Origin: Eledone cirrhosa
Taxonomy: Eukaryota
DNA length: 64,000 nucleotides
Assembly: GCA_964016885.1 (NCBI GenBank)
Contig: OZ024741.1
Coordinates: 400,272,001 to 400,336,000 of the forward strand
Direction: 5' to 3'
The notes under the pieces are model-generated. The model did not search any database. It had not been told where the DNA came from and saw only the letters and a list, made by a program, of their open reading frames with translations. The position numbers and the translations under genes are program-made. Positions 1 through 63,026 of this stretch are shown here, one piece after another; the first letter of the stretch is position 1, and each line of letters begins with the position of its first letter.

Positions 1-339
1 CACTGAAAGTTCAATAATAGATATGTTCAGAATTAAATAAGATATAAATATCTTAACCAGAACATTCCATCTGAAACTATATATATTCAGGCACAGATAT
101 ATACAATTTTTCTAATATGCCGTCTGCTAATTCTTTGTGGTGATGCATCAACTCTTGAAACCATCCTGTTAAAACTGGTGACCTTCGACGCGGGAGTATT
201 TAGGCATGAAATGCTCCTTTACAATATATATATATACATCAACCCAGCATTGTTAAAACTGGTGACCCCGAGAAAAAAAATAATAGGATCTGGTGTTGTG
301 TGTATATAAAAAAGAGAAAATTAATTAGCAGTATTTCAC

Positions 340-696
340 AAAAGATTTTTTAAACACGAACACGAGGAAATTTCAAAATGGCTACCAACAAGTCCTCCGC
401 AACTATCAACAATTTGCAACCCGAAAGAAAAAGAAGGAACATGCAGATATACTTTTCGTTGAGACACACTTTCTTCCACCTAACGTGGAATTCGGACACA
501 AACATTTCTCTGACAAACAACAAAAATTCGGACACAAAATTTCTCCGGCATTCTAGGGCACAAATTTTCTCCGACAAACAACAAAAATTCGAACACACTG
601 CTCAATTATTTTTTCACTGATGTGCTCTTTCAGCATTTGTTCTTGCTGATTCAATAATCTGTATCGACTTCCGTCTAGGAGGGGAGTATTGTAGTG
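340..696. mobile_element. Possible right end of a CACTA/CMC-type DNA transposon (left boundary unknown, may lie outside the window)
   Basis: Ends in ...GGGGAGTATTGTAGTG at 696, whose reverse complement begins CACTA. Preceded by imperfect subterminal repeats (GACAAACAACAAAAATTCG twice, TCGGACACAAA twice, ~490-597). The matching left TIR was not seen. Confidence 0.3.
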
Positions 697-699
697 ACC

Positions 700-775
700 T
701 ACATTCCGCGGGCTCACATACATTCTCTGTGCGTGATTTAGCTCAGCTCAGCCAATCAGCGCCAGTAGAAGAGGA
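700..775 (+). promoter_or_regulatory. Candidate MSH4 promoter (CCAAT box, local CpG enrichment)
   Basis: AGCCAATCAG with CCAAT at 752-756 is a good NF-Y consensus. The 700-910 interval is richer in CpG than its AT-rich surroundings and lies upstream of the MSH4 exons. Confidence 0.35.
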
Positions 776-873
776 TGTATCCCTACGTGAGTGAGGGAGA
801 AATTACCCGCGAAGATTTGAAGAATCTCTCTCTTGCACCAGGAACTTCGAACCAGCAACACGTACATGTGACG
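775..873 (+). CDS. Candidate first coding exon (MYPYVSEGEITREDLKNLSLAPGTSNQQHVHVT), possibly of MSH4
   Basis: ATG at 775, open for 33 codons to ACG|GTGAGA; an alternative donor TAC|GTGAGT follows 786. Both are phase 0, but the exon at 7311 starts in phase 2, so an intervening exon would be needed. No homology support. Confidence 0.25.
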
Positions 874-991
874 GTGAGATTTTGCACCTTAGCCTGCCGG
901 CTTTCTGGCGCAATGGCACATTCCCTTTTGTAACCTCATTTTTATGTGTAACTTCAACCATACAAGTTAACCAATATTATTTGTGCTACAA

Positions 992-1105
992 TCTGAGTCC
1001 AAATCCCGCCGAGGTTGACTTTGCCTTTCATCCTTACGGGGTCGATAAAATAAAGTACCAGTAATGAACTGGTTAATTGCTGGCCTTGTGCCTAAAGTAG
1101 AAACA
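992..1105 (+). mobile_element. 5'-truncated tRNA-derived SINE (family A) with target-site duplication
   Basis: GAGTCCAAATCCCGCCGAGGTTGACTTTGCCTTTCATCC...AATAAAGTACCAGT is shared with 5 other copies in the window. Flanked by ATTATTTGTGCTACAA (976-991) and ATTATTTGTGCTATAA (1106-1121). Confidence 0.8.
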
Positions 1106-1399
1106 ATTATTTGTGCTATAACAAAAATAAACATACATTTCATCTCTAAAATCTGCTGTTGACATCATTATTATGTTACTCGTGTCTCAATAACATTTAT
1201 AATCCATGCTGCTAAAGGGCTCACACATATGAGCAACCAACACAACTCTGATAGCAGTGACTAGGGATGTGGTTCATGAGTCAAGAATGCTGGAAGTCTC
1301 CACTGCTACAGGCTCTACCACAAATCTATCAGAGAGCAGCTGACACTTGAGCAGTTTTCCCTCTTCTGCACCAGGATGCCACTAGAGAAGTATTATTAT

Positions 1400-1555
1400 A
1401 AGGGGATTGGCATTAATCAGTAGAATGTTGGACAATATGCTTTGTGGAATATAGTTATGTCCCTTCATATTCTGCATTCTAATCCCACCGAGGTTAGCTT
1501 TGCCTTTTATCCTTCAAGGTTGACAAATAAAGTACCAGTCCAATAGTGGGTCAAT
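1400..1555 (+). mobile_element. SINE family A, degenerate copy
   Basis: AATCCCACCGAGGTTAGCTTTGCCTTTTATCC...AATAAAGTACCAGT matches the other copies. Confidence 0.7.
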
Positions 1556-1572
1556 TTTGCCTCTATTTTACA

Positions 1573-1763
1573 CAGCTTAGTAGTTAGAGCATTGAACATA
1601 TAATCTCGAGGCTGTGAGTTTGATTCCCAGACCAGGTGATGTGTTATGTCCTTGAGCAAGACACTTTATTTCATGTTGCTTTGGTTCACTCAGCTGTAGA
1701 AATGAGTTGCAATGTCACTGGTGCCGAGCTGTAGTGGTCATTGCCTTTCTCTTGGATGACATC
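1573..1763 (+). mobile_element. tRNA-headed SINE (family B)
   Basis: A-box-like AGCTTAGTAGTTAGAGC and B-box-like GAGTTTGATTCC, then GTCCTTGAGCAAGACACTTTATTTCA. An inverted copy is at 6035-6150 and related sequence at 4711-4920. Confidence 0.65.
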
Positions 1764-1790
1764 ATATAGTGTATATATATAGTGTATATA

Positions 1791-1869
<79 letters not shown>

Positions 1870-1947
1870 TGTATATATAGTGTATATATATAGTGTATAT
1901 ATATAGTGCATATATATAGTGTATATATAGTGTGTATATATATATAT
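1764..1947. repeat. (TA)n / (TATATAGTG)n microsatellite
   Basis: Directly visible. Confidence 0.95.
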
Positions 1948-2197
1948 ATCATCATCATCATCGTCGTTTAATGTCTACCTTCTACGCTAGCATGGGTTTA
2001 GACGGGAATTGACCCATGTGAGGCAAGATTGGTTGTCTCGCTCGTATAGGACTGTCTGGCGGGTTTTCTACGGCTGGATGCCCTTCCTAACACCAACCAC
2101 GTTTACAGTGTGGACTGGGAGGTTTTTACCGTGTTACCTACACGACCACATTACAGCGTGGACTGTGTGTTCATTTGTCGGGACACCTACACGACCT
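1948..2197 (-). mobile_element. SINE family C with (GAT)n tail
   Basis: GGCTGGATGCCCTTCCTAACACCAACC is the reverse complement of the GGTTGGTGTTAGGAAGGGCATCC core at ~7016 and ~63890. (ATC)n tail at 1948-1963. Confidence 0.7.
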
Positions 2198-2289
2198 CAT
2201 TAGTTTAGGACTGGATGTTGTGGCACCAACATAACTTTAGGTGTAGATGGGGGTGGGGGTGTATTTTTGATTAGGAGGTGCCTACTGAC

Positions 2290-2642
2290 TATAGGTTTCG
2301 CTTTGTACTTAGGCAAGGCGGGTCTTCTGTATTACTGTGTAGTGCCAAAGATCTTGGTCCAGTGACATTGTCTTGGAGAGGTGTAAGTGTGTGAGGTTGG
2401 AATTTATCAAGTCATCCCAGGTTTTACTGGGTCTACCTACTCCGTAACTTCCGTCTATTTTAATCGCCCTGCACATTTTTATACAGCTGTCGTCTTCCAT
2501 GCGCATCACGTGGCCATACCAACGTAGTCTTCTCTCGAGTAAACTGCATCTGATCCCTCTTATTCCTAATTTCTCACTTAGTTCGTTTATACTTTGCCGT
2601 TCACGTATATTACTATTACACATCCAGCGGAGCATGCAAGCT
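2290..2642 (-). mobile_element. RTE-clade LINE 3' fragment
   Basis: ORF 2309-2635 contains MLRWMC...ERRLRWYGHVMRMEDD...GRPSKTW, the typical C-terminus of RTE/CR1-type ORF2 after the RT domain. Confidence 0.85.
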
Positions 2643-2643
2643 T

Positions 2644-2762
2644 TAGTGTATATATAGTGTGTATATATAGTGTGTATATATAGTGTGTATATAAAGTGTA
2701 TATAGAGTGTGTGTGTATATATAGTGTGTATATATAGTGTATATATATAGTGTATATATAGA

Positions 2763-2807
<45 letters not shown>
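2644..2807. repeat. (TATATAGTGTG)n / (TA)n microsatellite
   Basis: Directly visible. Confidence 0.95.
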
Positions 2808-2810
<3 letters not shown>

Positions 2811-2879
2811 TATGAAGAGAGAAGAAACATTTAGATATAATTAGTAATAAAATGTATCATACCTAAACTGCTCCTAGAG

Positions 2880-2969
2880 TCCTCGACTACGTAGTTTCGT
2901 GGCATAAACAAAAACAATACATCATAAAGATATAGAGTCCTTGCGAGGTTTGCCGACTTATCAAGAGGA
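2880..2969 (-). ncRNA. Type I hammerhead ribozyme (inverted copy)
   Basis: On the minus strand: TCCTC-TTGATAA-GTCGGCA...TGCCAC-GAAA-CTACGTAG-TC-GAGGA. Confidence 0.75.
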
Positions 2970-3735
2970 TACCTCATTTTACTAGTCTCAAGAACGCGTC
3001 TACACGACGTGAGAAAGAATCCCAAAAGGCGGAGGGGGAGATAGTCACGCGATATAACGGTCGAGAAACAGAGCTAAGCCTCTTATAACCCCGAAGAAAA
3101 TACCACGGAGGCGGAGGGGGTATTTATATCGAAGCCGTAGAAGAGGTGGTGAAGGAGGCGAGAAGTATAAGTAATGGAAGCTTTCCAGTTGTCCCCACAC
3201 TTCAAAGATTGCTCGACCAGAGGGAGTTATTAACAATATATTTAGAAACACACAGATACATGCGGACACACACATATACATGAATGCATCCGCACCCAAC
3301 CGTGAGTTAAGGGTGCCAACTTCACCGATGGTGCTCAATGAATGACTGGGACAGACCAATCCGGTTGAACCAGACTGAACCAGTATCAGAGTTAAAAATA
3401 CATTGGTTGGGTGCGGATGCATTCATGTATATGTGTGTGTCTGCATGTATCTGTGTGTTTCTAAATATATTGTTAATAATTCCCTCTGGTCGAGCAATCT
3501 TTGAGGTGTGGAGACTGCTGGAAAGCTTCCATTACTCATACTTCTCGCCTCCTTCACCACCTCTTCTACGGCTTCGATATAAATACCCCCTCCGCCTCCG
3601 TGGTATTTTCTTCGGGGTTATAAGAGGCTTAGCTCTGTTTCTCGACCGTTATATCGCGTGACTATCTCCCCCTCGCCTTTTGGGATTCTTTCTCACGTCG
3701 TGTAGACGCGTTCTTGAGACTAGTAAAATGAGGTA

Positions 3736-3825
3736 TCCTCTTGATAAGTCGGCAGACCTCGCAAGGACTCTATATCTTTATGATGTATTGTTTTTGTTTA
3801 TGCCACGAAACTACGTAGTCGAGGA
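3736..3825 (+). ncRNA. Type I hammerhead ribozyme, predicted cleavage after GUC at 3820
   Basis: Stem I TCCTC (3736-40) / GAGGA (3821-25). Core TTGATAA (3741-47). Stem II GT(C)GGCA (3748-54) / TGCCAC (3801-06), including G10.1-C11.1. GAAA (3807-10). Palindromic stem III ACTACGTAGT (3810-19). C17 at 3820. Confidence 0.8.
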
Positions 3826-4328
3826 ATTTAGGAGCAGTTTAGGTATGATACATTTTATTACTAATTATATCTAAATGTTTCTTCTCTCTTCATAATGTAT
3901 TTTTAACTCTGATACTGGTTCAGTCTGGTTCAACCGGATTGGTCTGTCCCAGTCATTCATTGAGCAACATCGGTGAAGTTGGCACCCTTAACTCACGGTT
4001 GGGTGCGGATGCATTCATGTATATGTGTGTGTCCGCATGTATCTGTGTGTTTCTAAATATATTGTTAATAACTCCCTCTGGTCGAGCAATCTTTGAAGTG
4101 TGGGGACAACTGGAAAGCTTCCATTACTCATACTTCTTGCCTCCTTCACCACCTCTTCTACGGCTTCGATATAAATACCCCCTCCGCCTCCGTGGTATTT
4201 TCTTCGGGGTTATAAGAGGCTTAGCTCTGTTTCTCGACCGTTATATCGCGTGACTATCTCCCCCTCCGCCTTTTGGGATTCTTTCTCACGTCGTGTAGAC
4301 GCGTTCTTGAGACTAGTAAAATGAGGTA

Positions 4329-4418
4329 TCCTCTTGATAAGTCGGCAGACCTCGCAAGGACTCTATATCTTTATGATGTATTGTTTTTGTTTATGCCACG
4401 AAACTACGTAGTCGAGGA
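4329..4418 (+). ncRNA. Type I hammerhead ribozyme, predicted cleavage after GUC at 4413
   Basis: Identical to the 3736-3825 motif, 593 nt downstream. Confidence 0.8.
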
Positions 4419-4646
4419 ATTTAGGAGCAGTTTAGGTATGATACATTTTATTACTAATTATATCTAAATGTTTCTTCTCTCTTCATAATGTATTTTTAAC
4501 TCTGATACTGGTTCAGTCTGGTTCAACCGGATTGGTCTGTCCCAGTCATTCATTGAGCAACATCGGTGAAGTTGGCACCCTTAACTCACGGTTGGGTGCG
4601 GATGCATTCATGTATATGTGTGTGTCCGCATGTATCTGTGTGTTTC

Positions 4647-4650
<4 letters not shown>

Positions 4651-4710
<60 letters not shown>
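4651..4710. repeat. (TA)n(TG)n microsatellite
   Basis: Directly visible. Confidence 0.95.
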
Positions 4711-4711
<1 letters not shown>

Positions 4712-4920
4712 TGTGATGTCATTGGTGCCAAGCTGTATCAGCATTTGCGTTTTTCCTTGAACCAAACATCAGTGGCATGGTATGTATGGGCATCTGCTGG
4801 TCTTCCTCAAACACACCTTGCCTAGACTTTGTGCTTCAGAGGGGAACTTTCTATGTGTAAAACCCATGGGTGACATCAGTGGCATGGAGAAGGGATACTG
4901 GTATGATGGATTGGTGTATA
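4711..4920 (+). mobile_element. SINE family B internal/3' fragment
   Basis: TTGTGATGTCATTGGTGCCAAGCTGTA matches 1707-1734 (TTGCAATGTCACTGGTGCCGAGCTGTA). ACATCAGTGGCATGG is internally duplicated. Confidence 0.5.
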
Positions 4921-5196
4921 GTATCTGATCCAGCTCTGTTTTGAGGTCAAATCCCACCTCCTTCTGTCAAGAGGTTGCAACCAACAGATAGTAACAGCAA
5001 TTGAAATACCAATGGAAACATAGTTTCCTTGGTCCAATCTGACAATCAACTCCTTTTTTTACTATTCCTAATACAGGATTAGGAAAGTATTTGTAGAAAA
5101 GTCATCCAGTTGTAAAAATACACACTCCAACAATTTAGTATAAATTATCTCAACCATCTTAGTATGGAAATAAATATAGATGTATAATAGTAATGT

Positions 5197-5490
5197 GTTT
5201 AGTGTGTGTGTTAATGTGTCTCTGTGTGTGTGTTTATGTGTCACTGTGTGTGTGTGTGTCTGTAAGTGTGTGCGTCATTGTGTGTATCTGTATGTGTGTG
5301 TCATTGTGTCTCTATCATTGTTTGTGTGTGTGTGTGCATGTCATTGTGTCTGTGTGTCATTGTGTCAGTCTGTCTGTGTGTGTCATTGTGTGTGTGTCAT
5401 TGTGTCTGTCTGTCTGTGTGTGTTTGTGGATGTGTGTATGTCATTAGACCTGTTTTTGTGTGTGTGTCATTGTGTATGTGTGTCTGTATG
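5197..5490. repeat. Compound (TG)n / TGTGTCAT microsatellite
   Basis: Directly visible; it gives the Cys/Val pseudo-ORFs in all three frames. Confidence 0.95.
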
Positions 5491-6034
5491 TTACTGGTAT
5501 TTCACTTATAAGAAGATAATTATTTTTAACAGGTCAGTAAGAATTTATAATTATCAGTGAAGGTAGCCATCAATGTCAGTGACTGTGAGAGGAACTATGG
5601 TCAGTGAACATCTAAAATAAACACTACACTTCCTCACAAAGTTTTATTATCAGTCAAACCATAATTATAACCTCCACCAATCTTTCTACATAACAGAACT
5701 TTGTAATATATCCAAATTGACTCACTCAGTTTATTACTTTATTTTAACTAGTTTTTTTTTATTTTATCGAATGACAAGAACCCAGACCTCATTCGCTTAC
5801 CAAGTGGGACGGACCTTGTCAAATTGGACCAAGGGAATAAACTTTCTATTGCTGGTAGTATCTACTAGTTGCAACTCCTGGCAGATCAAGATACTTGAAG
5901 GAATCAATCGACAAGTTCCCAAACCTCATTCACTTATTGAGTAGGGTGGAACTCGTCAAACAAGGAAACAATGTTTCCATTGGTATTTCCACTGTTGATA
6001 CTATCTACCAGTTGCAACTCCTGGTAGAAAGTGG

Positions 6035-6150
6035 AGTGTGAAATAAAGTGTCTTGCTCAAGGACATAATGCACCAAATGGTTCAGTAATCGAACTTGTAA
6101 TCTCACAATTGAAAACCCAATTCTCTAACCACTAAGCCACATACCTTCTC
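6035..6150 (-). mobile_element. SINE family B, 5' portion
   Basis: TGAAATAAAGTGTCTTGCTCAAGGACATAA...CTCTAACCACTAAGCCAC is the reverse complement of 1573-1675. Confidence 0.65.
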
Positions 6151-6732
6151 TAAAGTCACTATCACTAAAGTGAATCAATAGGGATCAGTTAAATAAAATG
6201 AAAATGTATTCAAACAACTTTTAAGCTGAAAAGGTAATGTCCATATAAAACTATTATCTAGACTGAACGATATTGGTTTTCATACTTTTTCATTGTTTAG
6301 TTGGGGGAGGAAAAGACTGGTGAGAAGGCTGGAGGTTGGTACCCTCTAACTGGACACCTGGTGTCAGGGAGGGAATGATAGTGTTCATGGTCCTTCTTAA
6401 GCCCTCCAAGACTGGGATGAAGGTAGCTATCATCAAACTAGATACCTGGCTTGAATATTATGCTAGCAACAGAATGGACACCACTAAAAGTACCCATGGG
6501 CCAAGTATTGGTGTTAAATAAGGTGATGGATTAAGTCTATGATCTGGGTATATGTCCTAGGTTTTCTGATCAGAATTTAGGCAGATAGGGCTCTGATGGA
6601 TATATCCTACCTGGTTGATGATAGGAAGGGACCAATGAGATAGGTAAAGATAGGATTTTCCCTTAAAACAAGCTATTTCAGCATCGTGCATTATTTTTTC
6701 TTTTCTCTCATTTCTGGTCTGCAAATGATATA

Positions 6733-6955
6733 TTGACGAAGATAAGGATTGACAACAATACCGTTACACCCTTCTGTGGCAAGGGAGATGATTGCCTAGA
6801 TTCAGAAAATTAAGGTGATGGCCAGGCTGAAAAGAATTGAAGGTGTAGTAGGCCTCATGGCTCTGTACTTGGAGGGAAATGCATTGTACTTTGAAATAGA
6901 TGAACTTGACCAACTGGATACCAAAAAGATTGAACAGCACCTAAAGGAAGTGTTT
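6733..6955 (+). mobile_element. Degenerate Gypsy-type LTR retrotransposon gag N-terminal fragment
   Basis: Hand translation gives ...VTPFCGKGD, a frameshift, then IQKIKVMARLKRIEGVVGLMALYLEGNALYFEIDELDQLDTKKIEQHLKEVF. This resembles the PFxGxGD..W..K....LYLEGxA...LKEAF pattern of invertebrate Gypsy gag. Recognised by eye only. Confidence 0.5.
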
Positions 6956-6965
6956 ATATATATAT

Positions 6966-7168
6966 GGTCGTGTTGGTGACATGACAAAAAGCACCCAATC
7001 TATTTTTTAGATGTGGTTGGTGTTAGGAAGGGCATCCGGTCATAGAAACCAAACGAGAAACAGTTCTGTATGAGCAAGACATGGTCATCTGATCAAACTT
7101 GTCTCACAACTCATCTAACCCATACTAACATGGAAAATGGACATTTAATGGTGATAATGATGTTGATG
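6966..7168 (+). mobile_element. SINE family C
   Basis: AAAAAGCACCC...GGTTGGTGTTAGGAAGGGCATCC...CATGGAAAATGGACATTTAATG followed by a (GAT)n-like tail. Confidence 0.65.
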
Positions 7169-7310
7169 CCCATACATATTCTTTCCTTCTCAGCTAAAGT
7201 TTTTTTTTATGCCTAATCCAAGTTTCTTATCTAACATGTTTGAGATGCTATGTGTGTGACTTTCTGTTTACATGTCAAGTAGGTACTGTAATATATTGGC
7301 TTTACTCCAG

Positions 7311-7435
7311 GTCATCTACCATATCAAGTGATCGTCTTAACTTTGCTACACCTGCTCATGCTAAAATACCTGCTGTAAAAAGGACTCCATATACATCATC
7401 CACGACTAATTCTGATAGTACTGCAGTTATTGCAG
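7311..7435 (+). CDS. MSH4: MSH4 internal exon (SSTISSDRLNFATPAHAKIPAVKRTPYTSSTTNSDSTAVIA)
   Basis: Acceptor TTTACTCCAG| and donor CAG|GTAAG. 125 nt ending in phase 1; G+CC joins in frame to the 62267 exon giving STAVIAAIVEGRG, comparable to vertebrate MSH4 SVIVAVVEGRG after an S/T/P-rich N-terminus. Confidence 0.8.
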
Positions 7436-7469
7436 GTAAGGTATATAGTTGTTTTTGTCTAATTTAATT

Positions 7470-7650
7470 ATAGTTTCTACTTTTGGCACAAGGCCAGCAA
7501 TTTCTCCAGTGCATTACTGGTACTTTATTTTATTGACCCAATAAGAATGAAAGGCAAAGTTAACCTCGGTGGGATTTGAACTCTGAACATAAAGGGCCAT
7601 AACTCTATGCTGCAAGGCATGGTGTCTGACGCTCTACTGAAACTGCCAAA
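7470..7650 (-). mobile_element. SINE family A, near full length
   Basis: ACTGGTACTTTATTTTATTGACCC...GAAAGGCAAAGTTAACCTCGGTGGGATTTGAACTC. Confidence 0.8.
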
Positions 7651-7929
7651 CCACAGTTATTTCCTATGTTGTGTATATCTGACTTAGAATAGATATACTG
7701 CACCCCTGTGTGTTGTACGAAGTGATTAACATTTAATGAGCTGTCAGTGTCAAATTGCAAAAATAGAGAAATCTCCCCTTAATATATAATACAATGTCAA
7801 GGGAAGCAATTCATAAAATATTCAGTGTGCTGAAGGTTAAAAGAGTTGGCACCATGAAGGGCATCTGTCCATAAACCATTGCTTCAATAAGGCCCCACAG
7901 GGCTAACCCCTGCTTCAGCAAGGTAAATA

Positions 7930-8106
7930 ATTGGTTCTATTTTTGGCACAGGCCAGCAATTACCTCAGTGTATTCCTGGTACTTTATTTTATTGACCCCG
8001 TAAGGATGAAAGGCAAAGTTAACCTTGGGATTTGAACTCAGAACGTAAAGGGCCATAACTCTATGCTACAAAGCATGGTGTCTGATGCTCTACCAATACT
8101 GCCAAT
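7930..8106 (-). mobile_element. SINE family A, near full length
   Basis: Closely similar to 7470-7650. Confidence 0.8.
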
Positions 8107-8751: not shown

Positions 8752-8913
8752 ATGGCCCTTTACATTCTGAGTTCAAATCCCATCGAGGTTAGCTTTACCT
8801 TTCATCCTTACAGGGTCAATAAAATAAAGTACCAGTAATGCACTGGGAGATTTAGCCGATTTTCTCCTTCCATTCAAATTGCTGGCCATGTGCCAAATGT
8901 AGAAAAAATTATT
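8752..8913 (+). mobile_element. SINE family A nested in the MITE
   Basis: TCTGAGTTCAAATCCCATCGAGGTTAGCTTTACCTTTCATCC...AATAAAGTACCAGT...TTGCTGGCCATGTGCC. Confidence 0.8.
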
Positions 8914-62449: not shown

Positions 62450-63026
62450 GTGTTCCGAGGCCATAGTATCTTGAATAAGGTCGGGTTGCAAGAAGTTTAG
62501 GTAACTGCTTCCTCTGCTGATAAAGAAGGGTTTCCCCTTGCGTATGAAAGGCCGGTTATATGATGCCTGTGTGAGATGCGTGATACTGCATGGTAGTGAG
62601 ACACGGGCAGCAACTACAGAGGATATGTGATGGCTGGAGAGAAATGAAGCAAGCACGCTCTGTTGGATGTGCAATGTCAATGTGCGTGAACGACCAAGCA
62701 TGGTTGTGTTGAGAGAGAAACTGTGTTTAAGAGGGATAAGTTGTAGTGTGCGGGAGAGAAGACTAAGATGGTATGGACATGTGATGCGCATGGAGGACGA
62801 CACTGGGTAAAGAAGTGCCAAGAAATGCCAGTTGAAGGAAGATGCAATAGAGGAAGACCACGAAAAACATGGGCGGAGGTGGTGAGAGCTGACCTCAGCT
62901 GAAGCTCATGGAGGAGATGATGAAGGACCGTGACAAGTGGAGAGATGCTGTGCTGAATAGGACCCATCCCACTCTTGCAAGCAGGGAAAAGTGGATGTAA
63001 AATGATGATAATGATGATGATGATAA
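62450..63026 (+). mobile_element. RTE-clade LINE 3' fragment with stops/frameshifts and a (GAT)n tail
   Basis: Translates to KKFR*LLPLL...KGRLYDACVR.V.LHGSET...ERRLRWYGHVMRMEDD...RGRPRKTW. Tail ATGATGATAATGATGATGATGAT at ~63002-63025. Confidence 0.85.

Follow-up and report, generated by a model that had tools for sequence, protein, structure and literature searches.

The window, meaning the whole 64-kb stretch of DNA that was analysed, contains an insertion of a repeat with a unit of 593 bp, each unit bearing one type I hammerhead motif, and this repeat is very probably a non-autonomous element of the Penelope-like (PLE) type. It constitutes a new family of a known kind, the animal retrozymes or non-autonomous PLEs. 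The longest stop-free frame within the element spans 134 codons, a tblastn comparison with PLE protein gave no match inside the units, and at the element neither a terminal LTR pair nor an LTR/PBS/PPT organisation was found.

When both strands of the window were scanned with a descriptor, three hammerhead matches and no others were obtained, with predicted cuts after 3820 and 4413 on the forward strand and at 2885 on the reverse strand, the two forward positions being separated by exactly one unit (4413-3820 = 593). All three motifs comprise stem I (TCCTC/GAGGA), stem II, the GAAA, stem III and the GUC triplet, and 5000 dinucleotide-shuffled versions of the unit never yielded the descriptor on either strand. 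These results bear out what the first-pass annotation had read in this DNA, namely a complete type I hammerhead per unit and forward cleavage sites 593 nt apart, the latter as predicted positions. The search with hammerhead models allowing core variants, which it had also proposed, succeeded with the descriptor but not with Rfam, whose scan of positions 1-8000 of the window gave no hammerhead family at E<=1 and only microsatellite-driven miRNA matches. The core reads UUGAUAA and not CUGANGA, a U3:A8 covariant thereby replacing the C3-G8 pair, and such a covariant is reported from the Cercyon PLEs of Schistosoma in the accessible part of PMC4209133. Stem II is an extended hairpin of ~59 nt, while stem III is a 10-nt palindrome, ACUACGUAGU, which according to folding prediction could pair between two copies (duplex of -12.9 kcal/mol). 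Taken in isolation, the motif is predicted to form stems I and II (z = -2.5).

The first-pass annotation is also sustained in describing a non-coding unit with one type I hammerhead that is dispersed at high copy, the 23-nt 3' half of the motif having 7,458 exact matches throughout the 3.0-Gb assembly (control, 0) and a 16-nt version of it 8,680. For the present analysis, 150 insertions were inspected, gathered by similarity to the window's unit, by pattern order on contig 1, by similarity to an older copy and by end pattern; this sample is non-random, and two of its loci (L105 and L108) are one local duplicate. Tandem units with at least two consecutive type I motifs occur in 63 arms. Young copies diverge from one another by 2.35% on average, and an older subfamily, ~82% identical to the young one, has the same ~590-bp unit with the same ends. 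At three loci (L056 at 2285-3264, L175 and L197), the element is nested in (TA)n tracts of other PLEs or lies beside its own older copies.

In the window, the insertion is made of an inverted arm joined head-to-head to a forward arm, both arms being 5'-truncated and both ending in (TA)n (Table 1). The tandem array proposed for the interval 2805..4655 is thus real for the 2.1 units of the forward arm, whereas the whole stretch consists of head-to-head arms in (TA)n and is no plain tandem. The two forward units differ by 7 substitutions and 1 indel. Just past the cut in the reverse-strand arm (2883-2885 region), two substitutions relative to the forward units recreate a 9-nt word found 60 nt upstream, which is possibly a templated change that arose after insertion. 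To judge from its composition, the CpG-rich segment is likely to be an internal pLTR promoter.

Table 1. Features of the insertion and of its target tracts (window coordinates; distances past the cut refer to the predicted ribozyme cut)
Feature	Position	Strand	Basis
Left (TA)n target tract	2716..2804	.	tandem repeat finder and flank inspection
Inverted arm, 600 nt, truncated 5' at 3404 and ending 3' at 2805, which is end site 1 (80 nt downstream of the cut)	2805..3404	-	
Type I hammerhead motif, U3:A8 core, predicted cut at 2885	2880..2969	-	descriptor scan
Forward arm, 2.1 units of 592/593 bp, truncated 5' at 3405 and ending 3' at 4655, which is end site 2 (242 nt downstream of the cut)	3405..4655	+	
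Type I hammerhead motif, predicted cut after 3820	3736..3825	+	descriptor scan
CpG-rich segment, observed/expected 1.38, two conserved GC boxes	4158..4332	+	
Type I hammerhead motif, predicted cut after 4413	4329..4418	+	descriptor scan; 44 core/stem positions without fixed difference between old and young subfamilies
Predicted long hairpin sequestering the hammerhead 3' half, with end site 1 (4493 there) as its 3' base	4400..4494	+	folding
Putative 81-nt intron, GT...pyrimidine tract...AG	4436..4516	+	inferred from sequence only
162-nt 'tail' between the end sites, predicted hairpin at ~4593-4640	4494..4655	+	
Right (TA)n target tract	4650..4701	.	tandem repeat finder

The window itself is AT-rich and microsatellite-rich, as in animal DNA, and its repeat types hint at a cephalopod. 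Most of it is occupied by a 53-kb uninterrupted satellite (9030-62177), composed of 17-bp and 12-bp units of CAGTA/CAGTCCA words in ~3,200 copies, the units being 60-80% alike. Two LINE 3'-end fragments, which we take to be RTE-like, lie on opposite strands at 1950-2640 and 62480-62980 and are 74% alike over 156 nt. Finally, a short interspersed repeat whose copies are likely SINEs is present in both orientations at 992-1072, 1417-1514, 7506-7640 and 8752-8846.

The Penelope-type nature suggested by the first-pass annotation is supported by the anatomy of the insertions, with its two fixed ends, head-to-head arms and (TA)n. Of the 213 arms counted, all of them uncut by a locus edge, site 1 (window 4493, 80 nt downstream of the cut) accounts for 93 and site 2 (window 4655, 242 nt downstream) for 107; 13 have other ends, and no arm stops at the ribozyme cut. 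The two sites, 162 nt apart, are invariant between the old and young subfamilies, and 194 of the 200 canonical ends run into (TA)n. Over the whole genome, 2,551 copies terminate at site 1 and pass into TATA, and 5,043 continue beyond that site; the genome-wide count of ends at site 2 (632) was discarded, the pattern used being out of phase with pure (TA)n. Complete insertions number 145, i.e., 85 two-armed, 55 single-armed and 5 complex, and wherever both ends of a two-armed insertion are canonical, site 1 is paired with site 2 (74/74), the other 11 of the 85 having one or two non-canonical ends. A partial tandem with an inverted, 5'-truncated copy in head-to-head arrangement was seen in 81 of 126 insertions. 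Besides, 5' truncation is near uniform, with a mean free run of ~510 nt, and the arms overlap at their junctions mostly by 1-5 nt. In the accessible text of PMC8557442, PLE insertions are described as partial tandems accompanied by a truncated copy in inverse orientation, with a tail that is 'often only at one end'; in the part available of PMC11167929, the tail of the anole Poseidon element is the segment that separates two internal sites of RT initiation, both target strands being cut and extended. The ends at site 1 or site 2 (200 of the 213 arms) and their 74/74 pairing match this pattern and are the signature of a Penelope 'tail'.

Concerning the ribozyme itself, the old (43 pieces) and young (164) subfamilies show no fixed difference at the 44 core and stem positions, against 82 at the 541 positions elsewhere (P=0.002), so that core and stems are indeed more conserved than the rest of the unit, as a functional hammerhead had been expected to be; when the motif's 3' half is removed, the old seed copy having been found by exact match to it, conservation is 0/21 (P=0.057). 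The longest invariant run between these subfamilies, ~18% apart, and another of 27 nt correspond to the two ribozyme halves. This conservation of core and stems argues for a ribozyme function. Compensatory changes across all predicted helices keep pairing in 25 of 39 cases, which is not clearly above chance. As for the fold in context, the predicted probability of stem I is ~0 in linear monomer, dimer and circle, forcing the active fold carries a penalty of 8.5 kcal/mol, and no hammerhead is expected to fold in nascent transcripts with more than ~30 nt upstream, the monomer being highly structured (z = -5.7). Splicing as a ribozyme switch is not supported, for removal of the putative intron restores stem I only with little upstream sequence. 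In the published systems, as far as the accessible text of each source goes, the ribozyme of the anole element depends on protein, and insertion in vitro can do without this ribozyme (PMC11167929), and eight of nine Xenopus retrozyme dimers are without cleavage (10.64898/2026.07.22.740005).

The insertions also inform on the template. The cDNA crossed the cut site in 119 unforced passes with 0 stops at ±3 nt, and this free passage means that the template is therefore not a cut linear monomer but an uncut multimer or a circle. There is no pile-up of arm 5' ends at the cut site; an excess 6-48 nt downstream of it (17 versus 10.8, P=0.05) comes from an interval chosen post hoc, and no claim is made from it. 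No indel was seen at the cut junction in 249 read-throughs, part of which were selected by exact pattern. At diagnostic non-CpG sites, 46 of 60 insertions are homogeneous, whereas 13,030 of 14,192 random unit pairs (92%) differ; one insertion (L187) has 10 identical pieces spanning both arms, and the remaining 14 of the 60 are discordant at 1-4 diagnostic sites. Mostly identical units together with read-through of the cut fit a circular template, as has been proposed for PLEs (PMC4209133, accessible part) and for retrozymes (PMC7229834, likewise), and we consider the case for a circular RNA to be evenly poised.

The account to which we incline combines the ORF-less 593-bp repeat with the RT/GIY-YIG enzyme of a Neptune-type PLE acting in trans on a monomer-length, probably circular RNA with the aid of the hammerhead; taken as a whole, it falls slightly on the probable side. 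An internal promoter in one unit would transcribe the next unit, in which the hammerhead would cut only rarely, either as a dimer via the palindromic stem III or with the help of a protein, the monomer then being ligated. The PLE protein would nick both strands of a (TA)n tract and, on one RNA, cDNA would be primed at site 1 on one strand and at site 2 on the other; the RT would circle the template for a random length, and the two cDNA 5' ends would join by microhomology. A more specific version is put forward tentatively: a single RT dimer may nick both (TA)n strands and prime the two fixed sites of one ribozyme-derived RNA circle, making several turns, while the hairpin that has the first priming site at its base may hold the hammerhead off and thereby couple cutting, splicing and priming. 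Dual priming on one rolling circle would then account jointly for tail, inverted arm and tandem arrays.

Another possibility, which we judge to fall below even but to deserve serious consideration, keeps the same non-autonomous PLE-type element and takes as template an uncut linear multimer transcribed from a few young master arrays, these arrays lengthening by local duplication and the hammerhead acting at another step (5' trimming, protein-assisted) or as a conserved protein-binding fold. Its predicted sequestration would suit such a scheme, read-through of the cut site suits uncut RNA equally, and uncut RNA is the main substrate of the anole element according to the available part of PMC11167929. 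Divergence within insertions is 0.45%, against a median of 0.47% to the nearest other insertion, figures that young homogeneous master arrays also fit. In the same line, adjacent units of three insertions (L017, L014 and L123) share private alleles, which shows local duplication or conversion, and the insertion of the window, the most discordant of all, is a mosaic at 4 diagnostic sites in which the last units of both arms share a haplotype absent from the penultimate unit, as fits a heterogeneous multimer template. Nevertheless, linear copying can only shorten arrays, yet the longest arms reach 3,787 nt; both arms of L187 are devoid of any internal variation; and rare alleles, in small numbers, are present in all units in 5 cases and mirrored in register between the arms in 0, the others being single (46) or of another kind (4).

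An ORF with RT, CX2-5CxxC linker and C-terminal GIY-YIG is absent from the unit and present in other families of the genome. A GIY-YIG search of the genome gave 10,597 candidates, of which 150 were scored and 50 loci examined. Most of these 50 have a CX4CX2C linker before the C-terminal GIY-YIG, a linker type given as a Neptune/Nematis mark in the accessible text of PMC8557442, and in one of them a frame of 938 codons matches both RT and GIY-YIG. The genome contains at least four ORF-bearing families of Neptune-type PLEs whose hammerheads are of the U3:A8 variant (L061, L062, L063, L077, L080 and others), and in three of them a GT lies within stem III, so that the putative intron donor overlaps the ribozyme cut site. 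Four ORF-bearing families have hammerheads with a UUGANAA-type core (U3:A8) and a stem III that is palindromic, as well as two ends joined to (TA)n, each end being used once in 7/7 two-armed copies inspected by eye. The L061 family, with 96-98% identity among its 40 best copies and thus about as young as the 593-bp repeat, has its first end ~76-80 nt past the cut and a second end that runs into the ORF start; it is the best candidate partner. By blastn and profile search of the 50 examined loci out of 10,597 candidates, the unit shows no alignable homology to any ORF-bearing element, and no ORF continuation after site 2 was found in 30 of the 59 places with C or G past that site; the partner can therefore only be inferred, and by analogy it is likely a Neptune-type PLE. 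Three apparently ORF-linked copies (L056, L166 and L189) proved to be cases of nesting or of neighbouring insertions, with (TA)n or flank in between, and L002, L111, L160 and weaker tblastn matches were judged by their coordinates. Mobilisation in trans by a Penelope RT, as first suggested, is hence supported by abundant candidate mobilisers and by the PLE insertion anatomy but not by a linked RT/GIY-YIG ORF, the proposed genome check for such linkage having found none in the 50 loci and 30 of 59 places. Read sets of four sequencing runs were also compared over the stretch up to site 2, an ORF branching off at that point being invisible to this comparison: one was deep, with the same organism code as the best holders, one gave 0 reads and two gave 2-3 contigs at a depth of 2-5, shallow matches that are no evidence for the repeat in other species. 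Among the runs listed as containing the repeat, none was of RNA.

It is improbable, in our view, that the unit is the pLTR of an ORF-bearing PLE missed by the sampling, with the arrays as its 5'-truncated debris. The unit is laid out like a pLTR (promoter-like segment, hammerhead, intron-like segment, tail), the ORF-bearing family has a tail running into its ORF start, and the insertions inspected number only ~150; in all these 150, however, what comes after the unit is another unit, (TA)n or flank and nothing else, both subfamilies, ~18% apart, are closed ~590-bp units, and the neighbouring PLE ORFs examined are separated from it by (TA)n tracts or unrelated flank. Least credible, and already largely refuted, is the reading that a satellite or SINE-like repeat was amplified at the DNA level or spread by a LINE, its hammerhead-like motif being dead or due to chance, which the lack of an Rfam hammerhead match and the common presumed RTE-like LINE fragments nearby would favour, but against which stand the two fixed internal 3' ends with their strict pairing and (TA)n targeting, the 0/5000 shuffles and the core conserved across subfamilies.

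The non-autonomous PLE-type element thus favoured can be set beside known systems, as these are described in the accessible parts of the sources. Animal retrozymes, for which a field review is available (PMC6765202), are non-autonomous PLE derivatives of 51-972 bp (10.64898/2026.07.22.740005), a range that includes 593 bp, so that the monomer, first taken to be long for an animal retrozyme, is not of exceptional length. Like the animal non-LTR retrozymes (PMC7229834; 10.64898/2026.07.22.740005), the repeat has tandem units that are non-coding and contain one type I hammerhead each, a GC content <50%, a highly structured monomer, thousands of copies and co-existing PLEs. It differs in that their verified RNAs measure 170-400 nt whereas the longer unit is known here from genome sequence, in its U3:A8 core and ~59-nt stem II compared to a canonical small stem II, and in its short, dispersed head-to-head arrays in (TA)n compared to long satellites. 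With the Neptune-type EN+ PLEs and their pLTRs (PMC8557442; PMC4209133) it shares partial tandems, an inverted 5'-truncated arm, a one-end tail, a (TA)n target, a palindromic helix III, the U3:A8 core and an intron-like segment after the ribozyme, while it lacks an ORF, has a tail of 162 nt instead of 30-40 bp and shows no alignable homology to the ORF-bearing families examined. The Anolis Poseidon element PAc (PMC11167929) is comparable in its two internal RT start sites defining the tail, its AT-rich target, its use of both strands and its copying independent of the ribozyme cut, but PAc is autonomous and of the Poseidon clade, whereas the present repeat is ORF-less and uses the sites strictly one per arm in 74/74 genomic insertions. 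Finally, non-autonomous Chlamys elements such as MRC1 (PMC8557442) are likewise ORF-less PLE derivatives with head-to-tail multicopy insertions, but they share 3' sequence with an autonomous partner, most Chlamys elements are without canonical hammerheads, and the host is an alga. A search of the openly available literature found no description of the 593-bp family or of a strict one-site-per-arm count, though the supplements of the preprint may list related families. The suggestion of an undescribed family consequently stands for the family and not for its kind, which is already known and whose published length range includes the unit.

The family bears on why PLEs carry hammerheads and on whether animal retrozymes move as circles via PLE enzymes, the published link between retrozymes and PLEs resting on co-occurrence and, in vertebrates, on similarity of pLTRs. 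Its very young copies, which number in the thousands and have no ORF, display the PLE insertion signature directly, and its added value is an unusually clear record of how a PLE enzyme likely starts copying at two fixed sites. With a young ORF-bearing family of the same ribozyme variant at hand, a short RNA and one protein could serve to test both mobilisation in trans and the circle model.
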